From NCBI GenBank assembly GCA_040776945.1, contig JAXGZN010000002.1:544001-608000 (forward strand): a DNA stretch of 64,000 nucleotides, given 5' to 3'. A model generated the notes under the pieces. The model saw only the letters and a list, made by a program, of their open reading frames with translations, had not been told where the DNA came from and made no database searches. Source of the stretch: Methanomassiliicoccaceae archaeon (lineage in GTDB: Archaea; Thermoplasmatota; Thermoplasmata; Methanomassiliicoccales; Methanomassiliicoccaceae). The translations under genes and the position numbers were made by a program. Shown here in pieces: positions 17,467-23,560 of the stretch; position 1 is the first letter of the stretch; the number at the start of each line of letters is the position of its first letter.

Positions 17467-18630
17467 ATGTTCCTGACCAGGGATGAAGAGGCCATGCTGG
17501 CCGGCGAAAAGGGAGAGGGCATAAGAACAGCGATGGAGCTGCTGGTCGCTCTCGGCGACATATATGAGGCGAAGAGGCTGGTACCCATCGTTTCCGCGCA
17601 TCTTTCCGGTGTATCCTACAAGACAATCGGGGAGGGAGGGATCAGCTTCCTTCAATCTTTGGCCAAGGACGCTAAGGTGCGGGTGCCTACGACGCTGAAC
17701 CCTGCAGGCATGGACCGCGAGAAATGGAAGGAGATGGGCATATCTCCCCGTTTTGCCGACCGGCAGCACCTCATCATCGAGTGCTACGGGAAGCTGGGGG
17801 TCGATACTGATTGTTCTTGCACCCCATACCTGGGGAACAACGTGCCCAAGAAGGGCCAGACCTTGGCCTGGGCGGAATCCAGCGCTCTCTCCTTCGCCAA
17901 CTCGGCGATCGGAGCGAGGACCAACCGGGAGGGCGGCCCTGGGGCGCTCGCCGCTGCAATAATCGGAAGGACACCGGAGTACGGCCTTCACCTGGATGGC
18001 AACCGGACGCCGGGCATCGTGGTGGAGGTCGAGGTCGAGGAGGTCGATTACTCCCTGCTCGGACATGCCGTGGGCTCTTCGGTCGGGAACCGCATCCCCT
18101 ATTTCCGCGGCATCAGGCCTACTGCTGACCAGCTCAAGACATTGGCGGCGGCGATGGCCGCGGCCGGATCGGTGGCCATGTTCCACGTTGAGGGCGTTAC
18201 TCCCGAGGCCGACCCCCTATCGATCGAAGGCTTGGAGAGGCTGCATCTCGGCCGGGCCGAGGTGGAGGCGGCAAGGAACAAGCTGGACCGCGGGAGGGAC
18301 CCCGAGCTGATCGCCCTCGGCTGCCCACACCTCTCGGTCGATGAGATAAGAGGCCTGGCCGCCAAGCTCGAGGGGAGGAAGCGGAAGGGCGATGCCGAGG
18401 TGTGGTTCTGTACCTCCCGGCACACCGCGGCAAAGTGCCCCCGCGAGCTGGGGGTTCTGTCGAAGTTCGGTAAAGTGGTATGCGATACCTGCATGATAGT
18501 GACCCCTATAGAGGAGAGGTTCAGAAGCACCGCCACGAACTCTGGGAAGGCGTGCTGCTACCTGCCCAACCTGTGCTCCCAGAAGGTCGTGTACCGATCT
18601 ACCGAAGGATTGCTGGAGATGATATCCTGA
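17467..18630 (+). CDS. Aconitase X large subunit / phosphomevalonate dehydratase large subunit (DUF521)
   Basis: AHLSGVSYKTIG, TTLNPAG, CSCTPY, WAESSA, GARTNREGGP, GCPH, DTCMIVTP and TNSGKA. Confidence 0.93.
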   Translation: MFLTRDEEAMLAGEKGEGIRTAMELLVALGDIYEAKRLVPIVSAHLSGVSYKTIGEGGISFLQSLAKDAKVRVPTTLNPAGMDREKWKEMGISPRFADRQHLIIECYGKLGVDTDCSCTPYLGNNVPKKGQTLAWAESSALSFANSAIGARTNREGGPGALAAAIIGRTPEYGLHLDGNRTPGIVVEVEVEEVDYSLLGHAVGSSVGNRIPYFRGIRPTADQLKTLAAAMAAAGSVAMFHVEGVTPEADPLSIEGLERLHLGRAEVEAARNKLDRGRDPELIALGCPHLSVDEIRGLAAKLEGRKRKGDAEVWFCTSRHTAAKCPRELGVLSKFGKVVCDTCMIVTPIEERFRSTATNSGKACCYLPNLCSQKVVYRSTEGLLEMIS

Positions 18631-19394
18631 TACTCAAGGGCAGAGGCATATCCAAGGGCCGTGGGGAGGGCGAGGTCGTTCTGAGCGAGTCACCGGTATC
18701 GTTCCTCGGCGGCGTGGAGCCCTCCACCGGTAACATCGCAGGCCGGGAGGACGGCCGCTCTGTAAAAGGCAAGGTGTTCGCGTTCCCTCAAGGCAAGGGC
18801 AGCACCGTTGGCTCCTATGTCCTCTTGGAGATGAGACGGAGGGGAACACTGCCGGCGGCGATCATCAACTCCGTGGCCGAGCCGATCGTGGCCACAGGAT
18901 CGGTAATGGCCCGGGTTCCCATGGTCGACCGCATTGACCTTGGGCTGCTAAGGGAGGGCGACCTCGTGGTGGTGGACGGCGACAGCGGAACGGTTGAGCT
19001 GCCGGGTGTACGGGAGAACCATGTTGTGAGCTGCGTTCTTATGGACGGAGAGAAGATGCTCCTATTGAAGCGCAGCAGCGAGGTCGGCACCTTCCGCGGC
19101 TATTGGGCGTCGGTCAGCGGGTTTGTAGAGGAGGACGAGACGCCAGCGGAAACGGCCTGCAAGGAACTGCAGGAAGAGATCGGCCTGGACCTGATGTTCG
19201 AAAAGGAAGGCAGGACCGTCACAGTAAGGGACGGATGCACGGTATGGCATGTGCACCCTTATCTGTTCAGGGCCACCCGTCCCAGGGTGGTGATCGACTG
19301 GGAGCACACCGAGTACAGCTGGGTGCGCCCCCAGGACCTAAAGGATTTCCAGACCGTTCCAGGGCTTGCGGGGATAGTGCGGGACCTTCTCTAG
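18627..19394 (+). CDS. Aconitase X swiveling (small) subunit DUF126 fused to a Nudix hydrolase (probable CTG start)
   Basis: ILKGRGISKG, SFLGGV and GKGSTVGSYV (DUF126), then Nudix box GFVEEDETPAETACKELQEEIGL and IDWEHTEYSW. Confidence 0.9.
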   Translation: MILKGRGISKGRGEGEVVLSESPVSFLGGVEPSTGNIAGREDGRSVKGKVFAFPQGKGSTVGSYVLLEMRRRGTLPAAIINSVAEPIVATGSVMARVPMVDRIDLGLLREGDLVVVDGDSGTVELPGVRENHVVSCVLMDGEKMLLLKRSSEVGTFRGYWASVSGFVEEDETPAETACKELQEEIGLDLMFEKEGRTVTVRDGCTVWHVHPYLFRATRPRVVIDWEHTEYSWVRPQDLKDFQTVPGLAGIVRDLL

Positions 19395-22300
19395 AAGGTC
19401 ACGTCCACTTCCTTCTCCAGCAGGTTCATCTCATGAGGGTCCAGTGTCGACGGGTTCATCGCAAGCATCAGGATCGAGTGATGTATGGCAACCTGGTCCC
19501 GCAGGGACTGGACGAACCTCAGCACTGTAAGGAAGTTGTTGTTGGTGATGAGGTACTCCAATCCGTCCAGCAAGATGATGCCTCCGTTCTTGGACAGGAA
19601 CTGCTCAAGCGAGAAGCTGAGCTTCTCCAGGTCCTTTGGCCGGAGACTGTCATCCTTGCCTATGTTGGTCAGCCATATAACCGGGGTATCTCCGAGGTTG
19701 TACTTTGAGCGGACCTTCAGTGGGTAGTCCCGGGTCACGCAAAAGCCTTTCACCCCCTTCTCGATGGCCTCGACGAACAGCGAATAGGACCGCACGCCCT
19801 TCTCCTCCTTGATCAGGTATGTGAACCCCGGTTCCAGAGCGGAAGTGCTCTTTGTCGCATTCTTTTCCTCGGGCTCATCCTCGACCTTGATCATCGCCAC
19901 GGGGCTATGGCATGCCGGGCACTCGTTCTCGTACGGCTGCACCGGCTTCTTGCAATTGCAGCATTCGGTGACCCTTGTGAAACCTCCGGAAGCTGCATGC
20001 TCCATAATGGAGTCCACGGTCTTGCTCCCCAGCCCCTTCACTTCACGGAGGTCCTCTTTGCTGGCCATGGTTATCTTGTCCACCGAGTCATATCCGGCGT
20101 CATAGATCATCTCGGCCTTGAGATGGTTCATACGCGGCACCCGCATCAGGTACGCGAGCATGCGGCCCTTGTCTTCCCGCACAGGCGGGGCCTCGACCTT
20201 TGCCGGCGCGGCCTCCTGTCTAGATAGATAGTGCACTATGTTCCTCGCGTCGTTGCGTGACACCCCCTCGATGGCCGCGAGGCTTGCCTCGTCCGCACCC
20301 CTCATCTCCTCGAGGGAGGCCTTGCCCGCCCTTATCAGCGCGAGCGCGGTCTCCTGGGACATCCCGGGCACCCTGGAGAGGTCCTTGATCCTTTCCTTCA
20401 TGCGAAGCGAGGACAGGGCAATGTCCACCTTGTGCTTCTCAATGTCCCAGCTGGCAGCGTGCTCGCCCTTCGGTTCACTGACGAGCTCCAGCTGTAAGGA
20501 CCTGGTCTCCTTCATGACGTGGTCCTTCCAGGTCTTGAAGTACCCCTCCAGCTGGGCAGGGGCCTTGACCTCGGTTCGGACGAACTCCTCGACATCCAGC
20601 TTCATGTCCTTCCGCATCTGCTGGATGCGGCGGATCAGCTCTCGAGTATATCCTTCCGCCTCGATCTCAGGGGTGACCTCGAAATCTATGAACAGAGTGC
20701 CATCGGCGAACTCCACGGCCACGATGTTATCTGGCAGGGAGGTCGAGAACGACACCATCCCCGGCTCGATGCGAACGGCCTGGCCTTCGATGCCCAGCGA
20801 GTACTCGCCCCTTTCGATGGCCTCTTTGACCTTTTCGGCCGGTCGGTTCTTGAGCATGACAGCGATCTTGGCCGACCACTGCCGATAGACCTTGCCGATG
20901 GCGTTTGGATTGGGGATGACCTCCAGACGGAGCTCATGCCAGGTGTGGCCCGGTGCGACATATTCTACGCTCTTAACGTTCGCCTGGGAGAGGAGCACCT
21001 CCTCCATCGGCCTAAGAAGGTCAAGTACCTCTTGGGACCGGGATTGGATGATGATGCGCTTCAGCGGCCAGCGTAGCTTGATGTTCTTCTTCTGCCTTTC
21101 CTTGGTGATCTCGTCCACCAGTTCCTGCATGGTCCGCATGGACGCTTCCAGGCGGTCATCCACCGCCGTGGGGTCGGACATCGGCCAGTCGCACATATGC
21201 ACCGAGGTGAGCTTGCCGTCCAGTGCCTGATAGATCTCCTCGGATATGTGCGGACAGAACGGCGCCAGCAGCTTTACGGTGGTCATCAGCGCCTCGTAAA
21301 GGGTCACGTACGCCGCTATCTTGTCCATGTCCGCGGATTCGGTCCACATGCGGTCCCTGATGAGCCGCACGTACCATCGCGACATGTCCTCCAGGATGAA
21401 CTCCTCGAGGGAGCGGCATGCGCGGTGCAGGTCCAAGGAGTCAAGGTTCCTGGTGACCTCGAGCTTCAGCTTCTCCGTCCGGGAGGCCAACCAGCGGTCC
21501 TCGGGCCTCATGGCCGCGCGGGCCGCCGCCAGGTCGATATTCGATGGCTCGAACTTGTCTATTGACATGTAGGTAGAGGCGAAGTTCACCACGTTCCACA
21601 GGATGTTGAGCATCTTGCGCGCGTTCTTCACCCCCTCGTGCTGGAAGGAGATATCCTCCCATGGGGCCGACACTCGCATGAAGTAGAACCGGACAGCGTC
21701 CGCGCCGAACTCGGCGATGACCTTGGCAGGCTCAATGACATTCCCTTTGCTCTTGGACATCGGCTGGCCCTGAGGATCGAGCATCCATCCATGCATGAGG
21801 ACGCTCTTGTATGGCGCACGGCCGAAGGAGATGCACGAGGAACCGAGCTGGGAGTAGAACCATCCGCGTGTCTGATCATGGGCCTCGGTGATGAACTTGG
21901 CAGGCCACCAGCGTTCGAACTCCGAACGGTTGCGCGGGTAGCCTAGCTGAGCCCAGGAGCACACGCCGGCATCGAACCATACGTCGAGCACGTCATTGAC
22001 GCGCTTCATCTTGCCGCCGCACTTGTCGCACTTGAGCAAAACCCCGTCGATCCACGGCCGATGGAGGTCCATTCCCTTCTGGTAGCCCTCCGCTCCCTCA
22101 AGGTCATCGGTGGTGCCGACCACCTTCATGTGCCCGCAGCCGCAGGTCCAGACCGGCAGGGGGATCCCCCAGTACCGCTGCCTCGAGATGCACCAATCAC
22201 GGGCGTTCATCGTCCAGTCGTACTCCCTTGATGATCCGGCCCACTCCGGGGTCCACTGGACCTTGGCGATCTCGTCCAGCATGAGGTCCTTGACCTCGGT

Positions 22301-23560
22301 GACCCTGAGGTACCACTGGCTCGTGTTGCGGTAGATGATCCCGGAACGGCATCTCCAGCAGTGTCCGTAGCGGTGGTCTATCATGCCCCGATGGAACATC
22401 AGGCCCTTGTCCTGAAGATCGTCCATGATCAGCGCGTTGGCCTTCTTGACCGGCATGCCGTAATATCGGTTTCCGACGTCCTTTGTGAACCTCCCGCTCT
22501 CATCCACTGGGCAGTAAGGCTCCAGGCCGAACTCCCTGCCCAGTTCGAAGTCCTCGGGACCGTGGCCGGGGGCGATATGGACCAGGCCGGTCATGTCCGC
22601 CTCGACCGTCTGTGAAGGTATGACGCGATGCACCCACTTTCCGCTCATGCCCCTTTGTGATTCGATCTCATCGTAAAGGGGAGGGACGTACTCAAGGCCG
22701 ACCAGGTCGTCGCCTTCGATTAGCTGCAGCACCTCGATCTCTTCCCATCCTTCCAGCTGACCTATGGCGTCGACCAGGCCCTCCAGCACGATAACGGTGT
22801 CCGCCTCGCCGCCCCGATGGTAACGCACCTTGGCATATTGGAAGTCAGGGTGCGCAGCGACGGCCATGTTGGCCGGCAGGGTCCAGGGGGTGGTCGTCCA
22901 TATCAGCAGCGACACTCCTGGCTCGTTCTTGACAGGGAATCGCACATAGATGGAAGGGTCCTTCTCGTCAGAGTACTCGATCTCCGCCTCCGCCAGAGCC
23001 GTCTCGCACCTAGGGCACCATGAGATAACGCGATTGGAGGCGGCGAGAAGGCCGCGGTCGAACGCCCGCTTCAGCGTCCACCATGCGGCCTCTATGTAGC
23101 TGGGGGTGATGGTCATATAGGGTTTTTCCCAGTCCAGCCACACTCCCAGCTCCTTGAACTGCTCGGTCATCTTGGCCTGATGGTTCAGAGCGAACTCCTT
23201 GCAGGTGTTGACGAACTTGTCAATGCCGAAGGCCTCTATGTCCTTCTTGCTCTTGATGCCGATGGCCTGCTCGACCTTGACCTCGATGGGCAGGCCGTGC
23301 ATGTCGTAGCCCGGCTGGTCCCTTACATTGAGCCTCTGCATCCGCTTATATCTGACAACGGCGTCCTTGATGGTCTTGTTCCAGGCAGTGCCTAGGTGGA
23401 TATAACCAGTGGTGTATGGAGGCCCATCGACGAAGTAGTAGTCGGCCCCGCTGGCGCGAAGCTCCTTGGTCTTCTTGTAGGCATCGTTGTCTTTCCAGAA
23501 CTTCTGCACCCGCCTTTCCAGGTCGGGGGGGTTATAATTAGCTTGAACCTGCTTTATCAT
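19391..23560 (-). CDS. ileS: Isoleucine-tRNA ligase with C-terminal HhH, Zn-ribbon and DUF835 domains
   Basis: DGPPYTTGYIHLGT, WTTTPWTLPAN, DWCISRQRYWG, DQTRGWFY and PMSKSKGN; ~335-aa extra C-terminal region. Confidence 0.97.
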   Translation of the reverse strand: MIKQVQANYNPPDLERRVQKFWKDNDAYKKTKELRASGADYYFVDGPPYTTGYIHLGTAWNKTIKDAVVRYKRMQRLNVRDQPGYDMHGLPIEVKVEQAIGIKSKKDIEAFGIDKFVNTCKEFALNHQAKMTEQFKELGVWLDWEKPYMTITPSYIEAAWWTLKRAFDRGLLAASNRVISWCPRCETALAEAEIEYSDEKDPSIYVRFPVKNEPGVSLLIWTTTPWTLPANMAVAAHPDFQYAKVRYHRGGEADTVIVLEGLVDAIGQLEGWEEIEVLQLIEGDDLVGLEYVPPLYDEIESQRGMSGKWVHRVIPSQTVEADMTGLVHIAPGHGPEDFELGREFGLEPYCPVDESGRFTKDVGNRYYGMPVKKANALIMDDLQDKGLMFHRGMIDHRYGHCWRCRSGIIYRNTSQWYLRVTEVKDLMLDEIAKVQWTPEWAGSSREYDWTMNARDWCISRQRYWGIPLPVWTCGCGHMKVVGTTDDLEGAEGYQKGMDLHRPWIDGVLLKCDKCGGKMKRVNDVLDVWFDAGVCSWAQLGYPRNRSEFERWWPAKFITEAHDQTRGWFYSQLGSSCISFGRAPYKSVLMHGWMLDPQGQPMSKSKGNVIEPAKVIAEFGADAVRFYFMRVSAPWEDISFQHEGVKNARKMLNILWNVVNFASTYMSIDKFEPSNIDLAAARAAMRPEDRWLASRTEKLKLEVTRNLDSLDLHRACRSLEEFILEDMSRWYVRLIRDRMWTESADMDKIAAYVTLYEALMTTVKLLAPFCPHISEEIYQALDGKLTSVHMCDWPMSDPTAVDDRLEASMRTMQELVDEITKERQKKNIKLRWPLKRIIIQSRSQEVLDLLRPMEEVLLSQANVKSVEYVAPGHTWHELRLEVIPNPNAIGKVYRQWSAKIAVMLKNRPAEKVKEAIERGEYSLGIEGQAVRIEPGMVSFSTSLPDNIVAVEFADGTLFIDFEVTPEIEAEGYTRELIRRIQQMRKDMKLDVEEFVRTEVKAPAQLEGYFKTWKDHVMKETRSLQLELVSEPKGEHAASWDIEKHKVDIALSSLRMKERIKDLSRVPGMSQETALALIRAGKASLEEMRGADEASLAAIEGVSRNDARNIVHYLSRQEAAPAKVEAPPVREDKGRMLAYLMRVPRMNHLKAEMIYDAGYDSVDKITMASKEDLREVKGLGSKTVDSIMEHAASGGFTRVTECCNCKKPVQPYENECPACHSPVAMIKVEDEPEEKNATKSTSALEPGFTYLIKEEKGVRSYSLFVEAIEKGVKGFCVTRDYPLKVRSKYNLGDTPVIWLTNIGKDDSLRPKDLEKLSFSLEQFLSKNGGIILLDGLEYLITNNNFLTVLRFVQSLRDQVAIHHSILMLAMNPSTLDPHEMNLLEKEVDVTF

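Follow-up and report, generated by a model that had tools for sequence, protein, structure and literature searches.

A 64,000-nucleotide stretch of the genome of a Methanomassiliicoccaceae archaeon (GenBank assembly GCA_040776945.1, contig JAXGZN010000002.1, positions 544,001 to 608,000; hereafter the window) carries, on its reverse strand, a gene for an isoleucyl-tRNA synthetase (IleRS) that continues past the synthetase body into a C-terminal tail of two helix-hairpin-helix (HhH) units, a four-Cys ribbon, and a terminal DUF835 domain resembling KaiC-type ATPases in fold. This tail probably gives the window IleRS a second, non-catalytic job. We strongly infer that the tail would serve a function independent of aminoacylation, because (i) DUF835 is the best-conserved part of tailed IleRS proteins, and (ii) catalytically dead tailed copies, encoded beside a canonical IleRS in several relatives, have kept the tail.

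DUF835 is conserved above the enzyme that carries it. Averaged over all pairs of 39 full-length orthologs, identity stands at 0.74 in DUF835 and 0.64 in the synthetase core, falling to 0.38 in the Cys unit, 0.36 in either HhH unit, and about 0.25 in the linkers (26% in the Pro/Ala linker); the Cys-unit region holds at least 4 Cys in 19 of these orthologs and 0-1 Cys in the other 20. The IleRS-borne DUF835 domains also form an orthologous group of their own, with 50-73% identity across the class versus 30-40% to paralogs, the closest paralog of the window tail being a receiver (REC)-DUF835 protein of the same genome (35% identity).

The IleRS-DUF835 fusion is class-wide in Thermoplasmata. Among relatives, 38 of 41 match the tail, mostly within frames of 1365-1470 aa. 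The DUF835 part was matched at E<=1e-30 in 122 of 201 class genomes sampled, the C-terminal half of IleRS at E<=1e-40 in 112 of 141, and an IleRS-like frame of at least 1200 aa is present in 80 of 141 (hand count of listed rows), which supplies the phylogenetic distribution that an earlier sequence-only reading of this DNA had proposed as a check. Searched with the tail, the protein database gives 325 long proteins at E<=0.001; PF00133 and PF05763 occur together in every one of the 120 listed. Ten tailed frames from other families were confirmed with Pfam, including a 2335-aa form and the forms of family f13 (1230-1254 aa), which lack the HhH units, as does a 1301-aa Methanomassiliicoccus luminyensis form. 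A divergent, Pfam-confirmed tailed IleRS is found even in the otherwise DUF835-poor family f7, where a reduced genome has a total of two DUF835 proteins, namely the tailed IleRS plus a REC-DUF835 protein 44% identical to that of the window genome. Long DUF835 frames outside the class were considered as further candidate IleRS fusions and rejected, the three checked being N-terminal-DUF835 giants, a HerA-DUF835-SAP protein, and an immunoglobulin (Ig)-rich 2291-aa protein. Some genomes with the fusion also encode stand-alone DUF835 proteins of 164-218 aa (L057, L059, L060, L061, L062) that share approximately 50% identity with the tail domain of IleRS; in family f6 such a gene lies between mevalonate-3-kinase-like and PfkB kinase genes, and in f26 it lies beside a Ras/Roc GTPase gene. 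No description of an IleRS-DUF835 fusion was found in the literature consulted, which did not cover the account of KaiC-like hubs by Makarova et al. 2017 (mBio).

Long and short (~1030-1075 aa) IleRS-like genes occur together in at least 28 of 141 genomes (hand count), and in several of these the tailed copy has lost its catalytic motifs. Tailed copies from families f21 (L036, L034, L032, L103), f15 (L100, L102), and f14 (L031) were aligned. In f21 and f15, the tailed protein has lost HIGH and the editing motifs and has its KMSKS loop deleted, with PHIGH, KMSKS, and WTTTPWT all present in the short copy; in f14, the tailed protein has lost HIGH and KMSKS, keeps WTTTPWT, and has a degenerate GHGPED, next to a short copy of 992-1002 aa. 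Scores on TIGR00392, the NCBIfam ileS equivalog model (cut-off, 621.4 bits), follow the same division: tailed f21 copies reach 293-355 bits and tailed f15 copies 430-443, versus 922-952 for the short copies of the same genomes, and the second IleRS of f14 genomes scores 911-914. A motif screen of 140 long DUF835-bearing sequences flagged 26 as motif-lost, of which five are truncation or alignment-window artefacts or non-IleRS proteins and two probably duplicate loci included before. Compared with one another, the dead f21 copies share 0.25-0.30 identity over the former catalytic and editing regions, 0.45 over DUF5915 (the C-terminal domain of the synthetase body), and 0.54 over DUF835. DUF5915 is kept in the dead tailed copies, and DUF835 in all but one of those examined; among f15 dead copies, one has three HhH units plus DUF835. 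Family f10 shows another pairing, in which the tailed copy keeps its motifs and the tail-less second IleRS (L097, L105) has KITKD or KISRA instead of KMSKS, while still scoring 806-837 bits on the ileS model.

Such loss of catalytic motifs with retention of the scaffold is true of the f21, f15, and f14 relatives and not of the window protein. The window genome, like f13 and genome G446, has a single, motif-intact tailed copy and no short one. Judged by its sequence, the window protein is the working, housekeeping IleRS of the cell, with catalytic and editing motifs intact. A search of the assembly (2.17 Mb, 2 contigs, 99.84% complete) with the ileS model gave 8 matches, among which the tailed protein is the only one over the cut-off, the other frames being 478-1063 aa long. 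HLGT (a HIGH variant, aa 55-58), PMSKS (a KMSKS variant, near aa 600), WTTTPWT, and GHGPED all align with their counterparts in canonical copies; HLGT and PMSKS being variants, the enzyme is taken as active because it is the sole IleRS in the genome. It thus resembles canonical archaeal/eukaryote-type IleRS (tRNA-synt_1, Anticodon_1, and DUF5915) in its full-length match over the cut-off and in its motifs, and differs from it in these two substitutions and in 336 extra C-terminal residues.

How the tail might act can be framed as follows, and we consider the chances about even that tailed IleRS is a two-function protein of this kind. DUF835 would serve as a protein-protein docking or output module, as it may at the end of REC, PAS/GAF, V4R, and membrane sensors, with the IleRS body in the input position that receiver or ligand-binding domains hold in other DUF835 proteins. 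The two HhH units and the four-Cys ribbon form the flexible tether that carries DUF835. Occupancy by tRNA-Ile, rather than isoleucine activation, would then be relayed to DUF835 partners; alternatively, the tail would place IleRS in an assembly of these partners. Binding of tRNA-Ile would be the likelier input because DUF5915, which we take from IleRS-tRNA structures to lie on the tRNA anticodon side, survives together with DUF835 in the dead copies. The sequence-only reading had suggested an enzyme wired into KaiC signalling, for example reporting isoleucine or tRNA charging, or oligomerised through DUF835. A signalling-type, non-catalytic role finds indirect support in DUF835 conservation, in the use of this domain as a C-terminal module of sensors, and in retention of the tail as catalysis decays; reporting of isoleucine via the active site now appears less likely, because the dead copies have lost exactly the activation and editing motifs.

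Several observations weigh against this two-function proposal. Tail-less IleRS proteins of 1059-1076 aa occur in three genomes of the window's own family (G012, G017, G023), so the tail is dispensable in some lineages; two of these genomes (G017 and G023) retain 3-5 other DUF835 proteins. The dead f15 copy L102 has three HhH units and no DUF835, such that DUF835 is not the sole tail element to be retained. In a quick tree of synthetase cores, short IleRS proteins form a strongly supported separate group, and the dead groups are long-branched with their placement open; the tree thus does not tell whether the dead groups descend from live tailed proteins, and their common origin rests on the shared tail. 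Within the window, the gene neighbourhood offers no signalling link, with FEN1 upstream and aconitase X (AcnX) genes convergent downstream. Lastly, DUF835 compared with the genome's own KaiC-like proteins gave an hhalign probability of 3.3%, too weak to establish homology from sequence; the KaiC link rests on fold.

The anatomy proposed by the sequence-only reading (IleRS, two HhH units, a Zn-ribbon-like four-Cys unit, and DUF835) is borne out by Pfam, sequence, and model (Table 1). The gene is one unbroken frame plus stop, with no internal stop, and the end of the synthetase core, put by that reading at ~aa 1054, agrees with the end of DUF5915 at aa 1050. In the Pfam scan, the identification of the end domain as DUF835 was confirmed with a PF05763 match at aa 1260-1384 (111.9 bits versus a gathering threshold of 33.1) that covers profile positions 10-135 of 136. 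PF14520 (HHH_5) is matched in two stretches (65.2 bits versus a cut-off of 27), both modelled as paired helices; the second HhH unit also gives sequence matches to the HhH domain of a Hel308-type helicase (2zj2) and to the N-terminal domain of Rad51/RadA (1pzn). The Cys pairs, CCNC at tail residues 147-150 and CPAC at 161-164 (aa 1200-1217), lie within a confidently modelled small beta unit (tail residues 145-170). The Pfam scan gave no zinc-ribbon family for the window protein itself; PF13240, PF13248, or PF12773 is matched in orthologs.

Table 1. Domain map of the tailed IleRS gene (positions in the window; pLDDT, predicted local distance difference test score of the tail model)
Feature	Positions	Strand	Basis
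Whole gene, IleRS-HhH-HhH-four-Cys ribbon-DUF835	19391..23560	-	1389 aa; TIGR00392 960.8 bits
Class I catalytic domain with CP1 editing insert, aa 18-639	21644..23509	-	tRNA-synt_1 PF00133 E 1.5e-125
Anticodon_1 (anticodon-binding helical domain), aa 688-836	21053..21499	-	PF08264 E 2.5e-36
DUF5915, C-terminal domain of archaeal/eukaryote-type IleRS, aa 856-1050	20411..20995	-	PF19302 E 2.8e-23
First (HhH)2 unit, aa 1055-1116	20213..20398	-	HHH_5; helices at tail residues 2-63, pLDDT 91-97
Flexible Pro/Ala-rich linker, aa 1117-1130	20171..20212	-	pLDDT <50 at tail residues 65-70
Second (HhH)2 unit, aa 1131-1190	19991..20170	-	HHH_5 best stretch 1137-1189; tail residues 78-137 in model
Four-Cys ribbon CCNC...CPAC, ~aa 1198-1223	19892..19969	-	Sequence; short strands, pLDDT 90-95
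Disordered acidic linker, aa 1224-1243	19832..19891	-	pLDDT <50 at tail residues 174-186; net charge -3
DUF835, P-loop-less KaiC/FlaH-like alpha/beta domain, aa 1244-1389	19394..19831	-	PF05763 E 2.6e-32

An AlphaFold2 model of the tail, built from 40 aligned sequences (mean pLDDT 89.9), places the DUF835 alpha/beta domain at tail residues 191-336. A fold search with this domain against 48,161 solved chains (VIA-align) gave as best matches the FlaH structures 4yds (Z 16.4, root-mean-square deviation [rmsd] 3.2 A over 149 residues) and 4wia (Z 14.9), followed by the KaiC-like PH0284 (2dr3, Z 14.2), KaiC (8dba, Z 13.6), and then general RecA-fold proteins. The likeness of DUF835 to these FlaH/ArlH and KaiC-family single-domain ATPases is therefore one of fold, at Z 13.6-16.4 over 137-151 residues, whereas sequence identity is 8-18%, PF06745 (KaiC-type ATPase) is not among the 17 Pfam families matched by the window protein at E<=1, and a Walker A P-loop (GxxxxGK[ST]) was sought in the tail DUF835 and is absent. 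The missing Walker A, already remarked on from the letters, can be placed in the model: the loop between strand 1 and helix 1 reads KEEKGVRS in the window protein and varies across all nine DUF835 domains of the genome, with no conserved G or K. In the weak hhalign comparison given above, the KaiC-like proteins of the genome align with this loop through their GKT and with ILLDGLE through their Walker B. A sequence search of the PDB with the tail matched HhH regions and no solved DUF835. Prediction of a complex of two DUF835 copies (tail residues 186-336) scored 0.00 in a run with no controls and is uninformative either way.

Foldseek returned full-length RadA/Rad51 proteins at E of about 2e-6 (270-310 columns) and FlaH with a template-modelling (TM) score of 0.51. 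The RadA/Rad51 alignments have an rmsd of 10.6-21 A, such that the order of modules is alike and their arrangement is not. RadA/Rad51 and the tail thus have in common an HhH N-domain followed by a RecA core, as well as HhH sequence matches to RadA models, in which RadA profiles match the HhH part of the window protein only and under their cut-offs; the tail differs in lacking a P-loop and in an HhH count that ranges from 0 to 3 among tailed orthologs.

These nucleic-acid-binding relatives bring to the fore a different account of the tail, i.e., that it is a tRNA or ribosome tether that merely improves aminoacylation, the HhH units binding nucleic acid non-specifically and the RecA-like DUF835 helping to hold tRNA in the manner of the P-loop-poor Elp4/5/6 ring. 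Appended tRNA-binding domains are common in synthetases (review PMC4394549), the HhH units do resemble those of Hel308-type helicase and Rad51/RadA, and Elp456 subunits are among the fold matches of DUF835 (4a8j, Z 13.0; 4ejs, Z 11.6). The Elp456 matches, however, score no better than general RecA-fold proteins; the HhH units are the least conserved of the folded parts and are missing altogether from the f13 and M. luminyensis forms noted above; and the tail persists in dead copies, where no aminoacylation remains to be improved. Across orthologs, the HhH units have median charges of -1 and -2, close to neutral or acidic; this charge analysis is itself uninformative. On balance, we judge a tether of this sort to be unlikely.

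What else carries DUF835 bears on the docking and output function that we favour. A library-wide search yielded 2879 representatives at E<=0.001. When 39 long DUF835 proteins were scanned for domains, the sole synthetase-type domains were those of the IleRS set; the rest had PAS/GAF, seven-transmembrane (7TM), or tetratricopeptide-repeat (TPR) domains, tandem DUF835, or a remainder matching no family. The window genome encodes eight further DUF835 proteins (REC-DUF835, V4R-DUF835, a membrane protein, a fusion to a DnaA-type ATPase, and four short proteins) and has 15 matches to the KaiC-type ATPase family. DUF835 is given as 'iKaiC', an output domain of response regulators, in a table of Galperin et al. 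2018 (PMC5847659). With DUF835-ended response regulators and sensors, tailed IleRS shares the Pfam family, the C-terminal position of the domain, and the missing P-loop; it departs from them in that DUF835 here follows an enzyme essential for translation, where theirs follows a receiver or ligand-binding domain.

An appended, non-catalytic domain on a synthetase could also be an assembly handle for a multi-synthetase or translation-factor complex, like the C-terminal appended repeats of metazoan IleRS. Rings are commonly formed by RecA/KaiC-fold domains, which fits such a handle. According to PMC4394549, human IleRS depends on the domains appended at its C-terminus to assemble into the complex, and synthetase complexes are also found in archaea. 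The metazoan repeats are likewise a C-terminal protein-interaction appendage on IleRS; the DUF835 tail is nonetheless of unrelated fold and lineage, and no complex is known here. Given also that no synthetase besides IleRS appears among the long DUF835 proteins scanned and that the remaining carriers belong to sensing and regulation rather than to translation, this explanation seems to us quite improbable.

The fusion itself is not an assembly artefact. The sequence-only reading had named as contrary evidence a separate tail gene in relatives, or a stop or frameshift near position 20400; both were looked for, and instead the junction at 20401 is crossed by identical contigs from other sources. 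An independent DNA contig (X10) spans positions 19300-21300 with zero differences, and contigs from three RNA libraries, each of a different study (X16 record 8, X17 record 13, X15 record 4), cross the junction with no differences or indels; being contigs, the latter do not prove transcription. Split genes in same-genus genomes were examined and rejected as evidence of a separately encoded tail, since the broken frame in G007 is due to an N run and that in G008 to a frameshift inside the synthetase core, neither splitting at the junction. Short 'tail-only' proteins lie mostly on contigs of 1-3 kb; a few on long contigs (P0139, P0156, P0169) may be true stand-alone relatives. That the fusion is a neutral accident, read-through, or assembly error without function is thus extremely improbable, given these contigs, the intact frame in most class genomes sampled, and the conservation of DUF835 above the core, even if some lineages have lost the tail with no obvious replacement.

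A more far-reaching version of the two-function proposal is that tailed IleRS and its dead descendants would together constitute an archaeal sensor of tRNA-Ile status, in which the IleRS body would bind tRNA-Ile and DUF835 would relay that state to the downstream hub that REC-, PAS/GAF-, and V4R-DUF835 proteins also use; we hold this to be unlikely. The downstream hub may include KaiC-like ATPases or Ras-like GTPases encoded beside DUF835 genes. A functional analogue would be the HisRS-like domain of GCN2, a pseudo-synthetase sensor joined to a kinase output. Tailed IleRS resembles this and other pseudo-synthetase sensors in joining a synthetase scaffold to a signalling module, and the motif-less copies of f21, f15, and f14 persist beside a working enzyme; it differs in that the window synthetase is motif-intact and the sole copy, in that the output is a dead KaiC-like domain and not a kinase, and in that tRNA binding by the dead copies is putative. 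Neither RelA nor GCN2 is known from these organisms.

Appended-domain synthetases and pseudo-synthetase sensors have been mainly a eukaryotic theme, and the sensing of amino acid or tRNA-charging state in archaea is, to our knowledge, largely open. Against this background, tailed IleRS presents an essential synthetase with a signalling-type domain that is conserved above the enzyme itself and, in several lineages, has outlasted its catalytic motifs. Should the sensor proposal hold, it would provide an archaeal functional counterpart of the GCN2 HisRS-like domain. Live tailed, dead tailed, and live tail-less IleRS proteins amount to natural 'separation-of-function' alleles, and the uncharacterised DUF835 gains a testable entry point, with definable candidate partners in small genomes. 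Annotation is also affected: the f21 and f15 dead copies analysed fall under the ileS cut-off, and one dead form among the protein database matches (P0103) is named 'isoleucine--tRNA ligase' by its source.

Turning to neighbouring genes, positions 17467-19394 on the forward strand hold an aconitase X large-subunit gene followed by a gene for an AcnX swivel-NUDIX fusion; these are convergent on the IleRS gene, with ends overlapping at 19391-19394. Of 13 loci from different families, 5 have an AcnX-like open reading frame adjacent to the gene for tailed IleRS. The dead IleRS gene of f21 is followed, 5-84 bases downstream on the same strand, by a 2-dehydropantoate 2-reductase (ketopantoate reductase; best PDB match 5hws, E 1e-44) gene in 9 of 10 loci (L108-L117), and a MiaB/RimO-type methylthiotransferase gene is convergent in 5 of the 10. 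Inspection of the window and of 12 loci from other families turned up neither neighbour, and a link to ketopantoate reductase as a general feature of tailed IleRS was accordingly rejected (0 of 12).

Some further proteins share parts with tailed IleRS. Two CARDB proteins of 2388-2426 aa (L106:7401-14678 and L107:7514-14677, both on the reverse strand) finish with a region that shares 30-35% identity with IleRS aa 800-1030 (DUF5915) and have no synthetase core and no DUF835. Proteins of 1603-1739 aa from f10 and f30 (L038, L039, L040) begin with DUF835, their remainder giving weak coiled-coil-type Pfam matches; in f10 genomes this giant gene lies ~28 kb from the tailed IleRS gene. The DnaA-type fusion of the window genome (L005:1486-3375, reverse strand; G000:C1 near 799483) is a 630-aa protein combining CCDC...CPRC, a bacterial DnaA-type ATPase domain (E 1.8e-41), and a C-terminal DUF835. 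The only Ras-family match of this genome (G000:C1:266353-266826, outside the window) is directly upstream of the V4R-DUF835 gene. Among the loci of the best Ras-family matches, one per class genome (L063-L092), 14 of 30 have a DUF835 domain no more than 1.5 kb away (8 whole, 6 truncated at the locus edge), and one such neighbour has a V4R domain.

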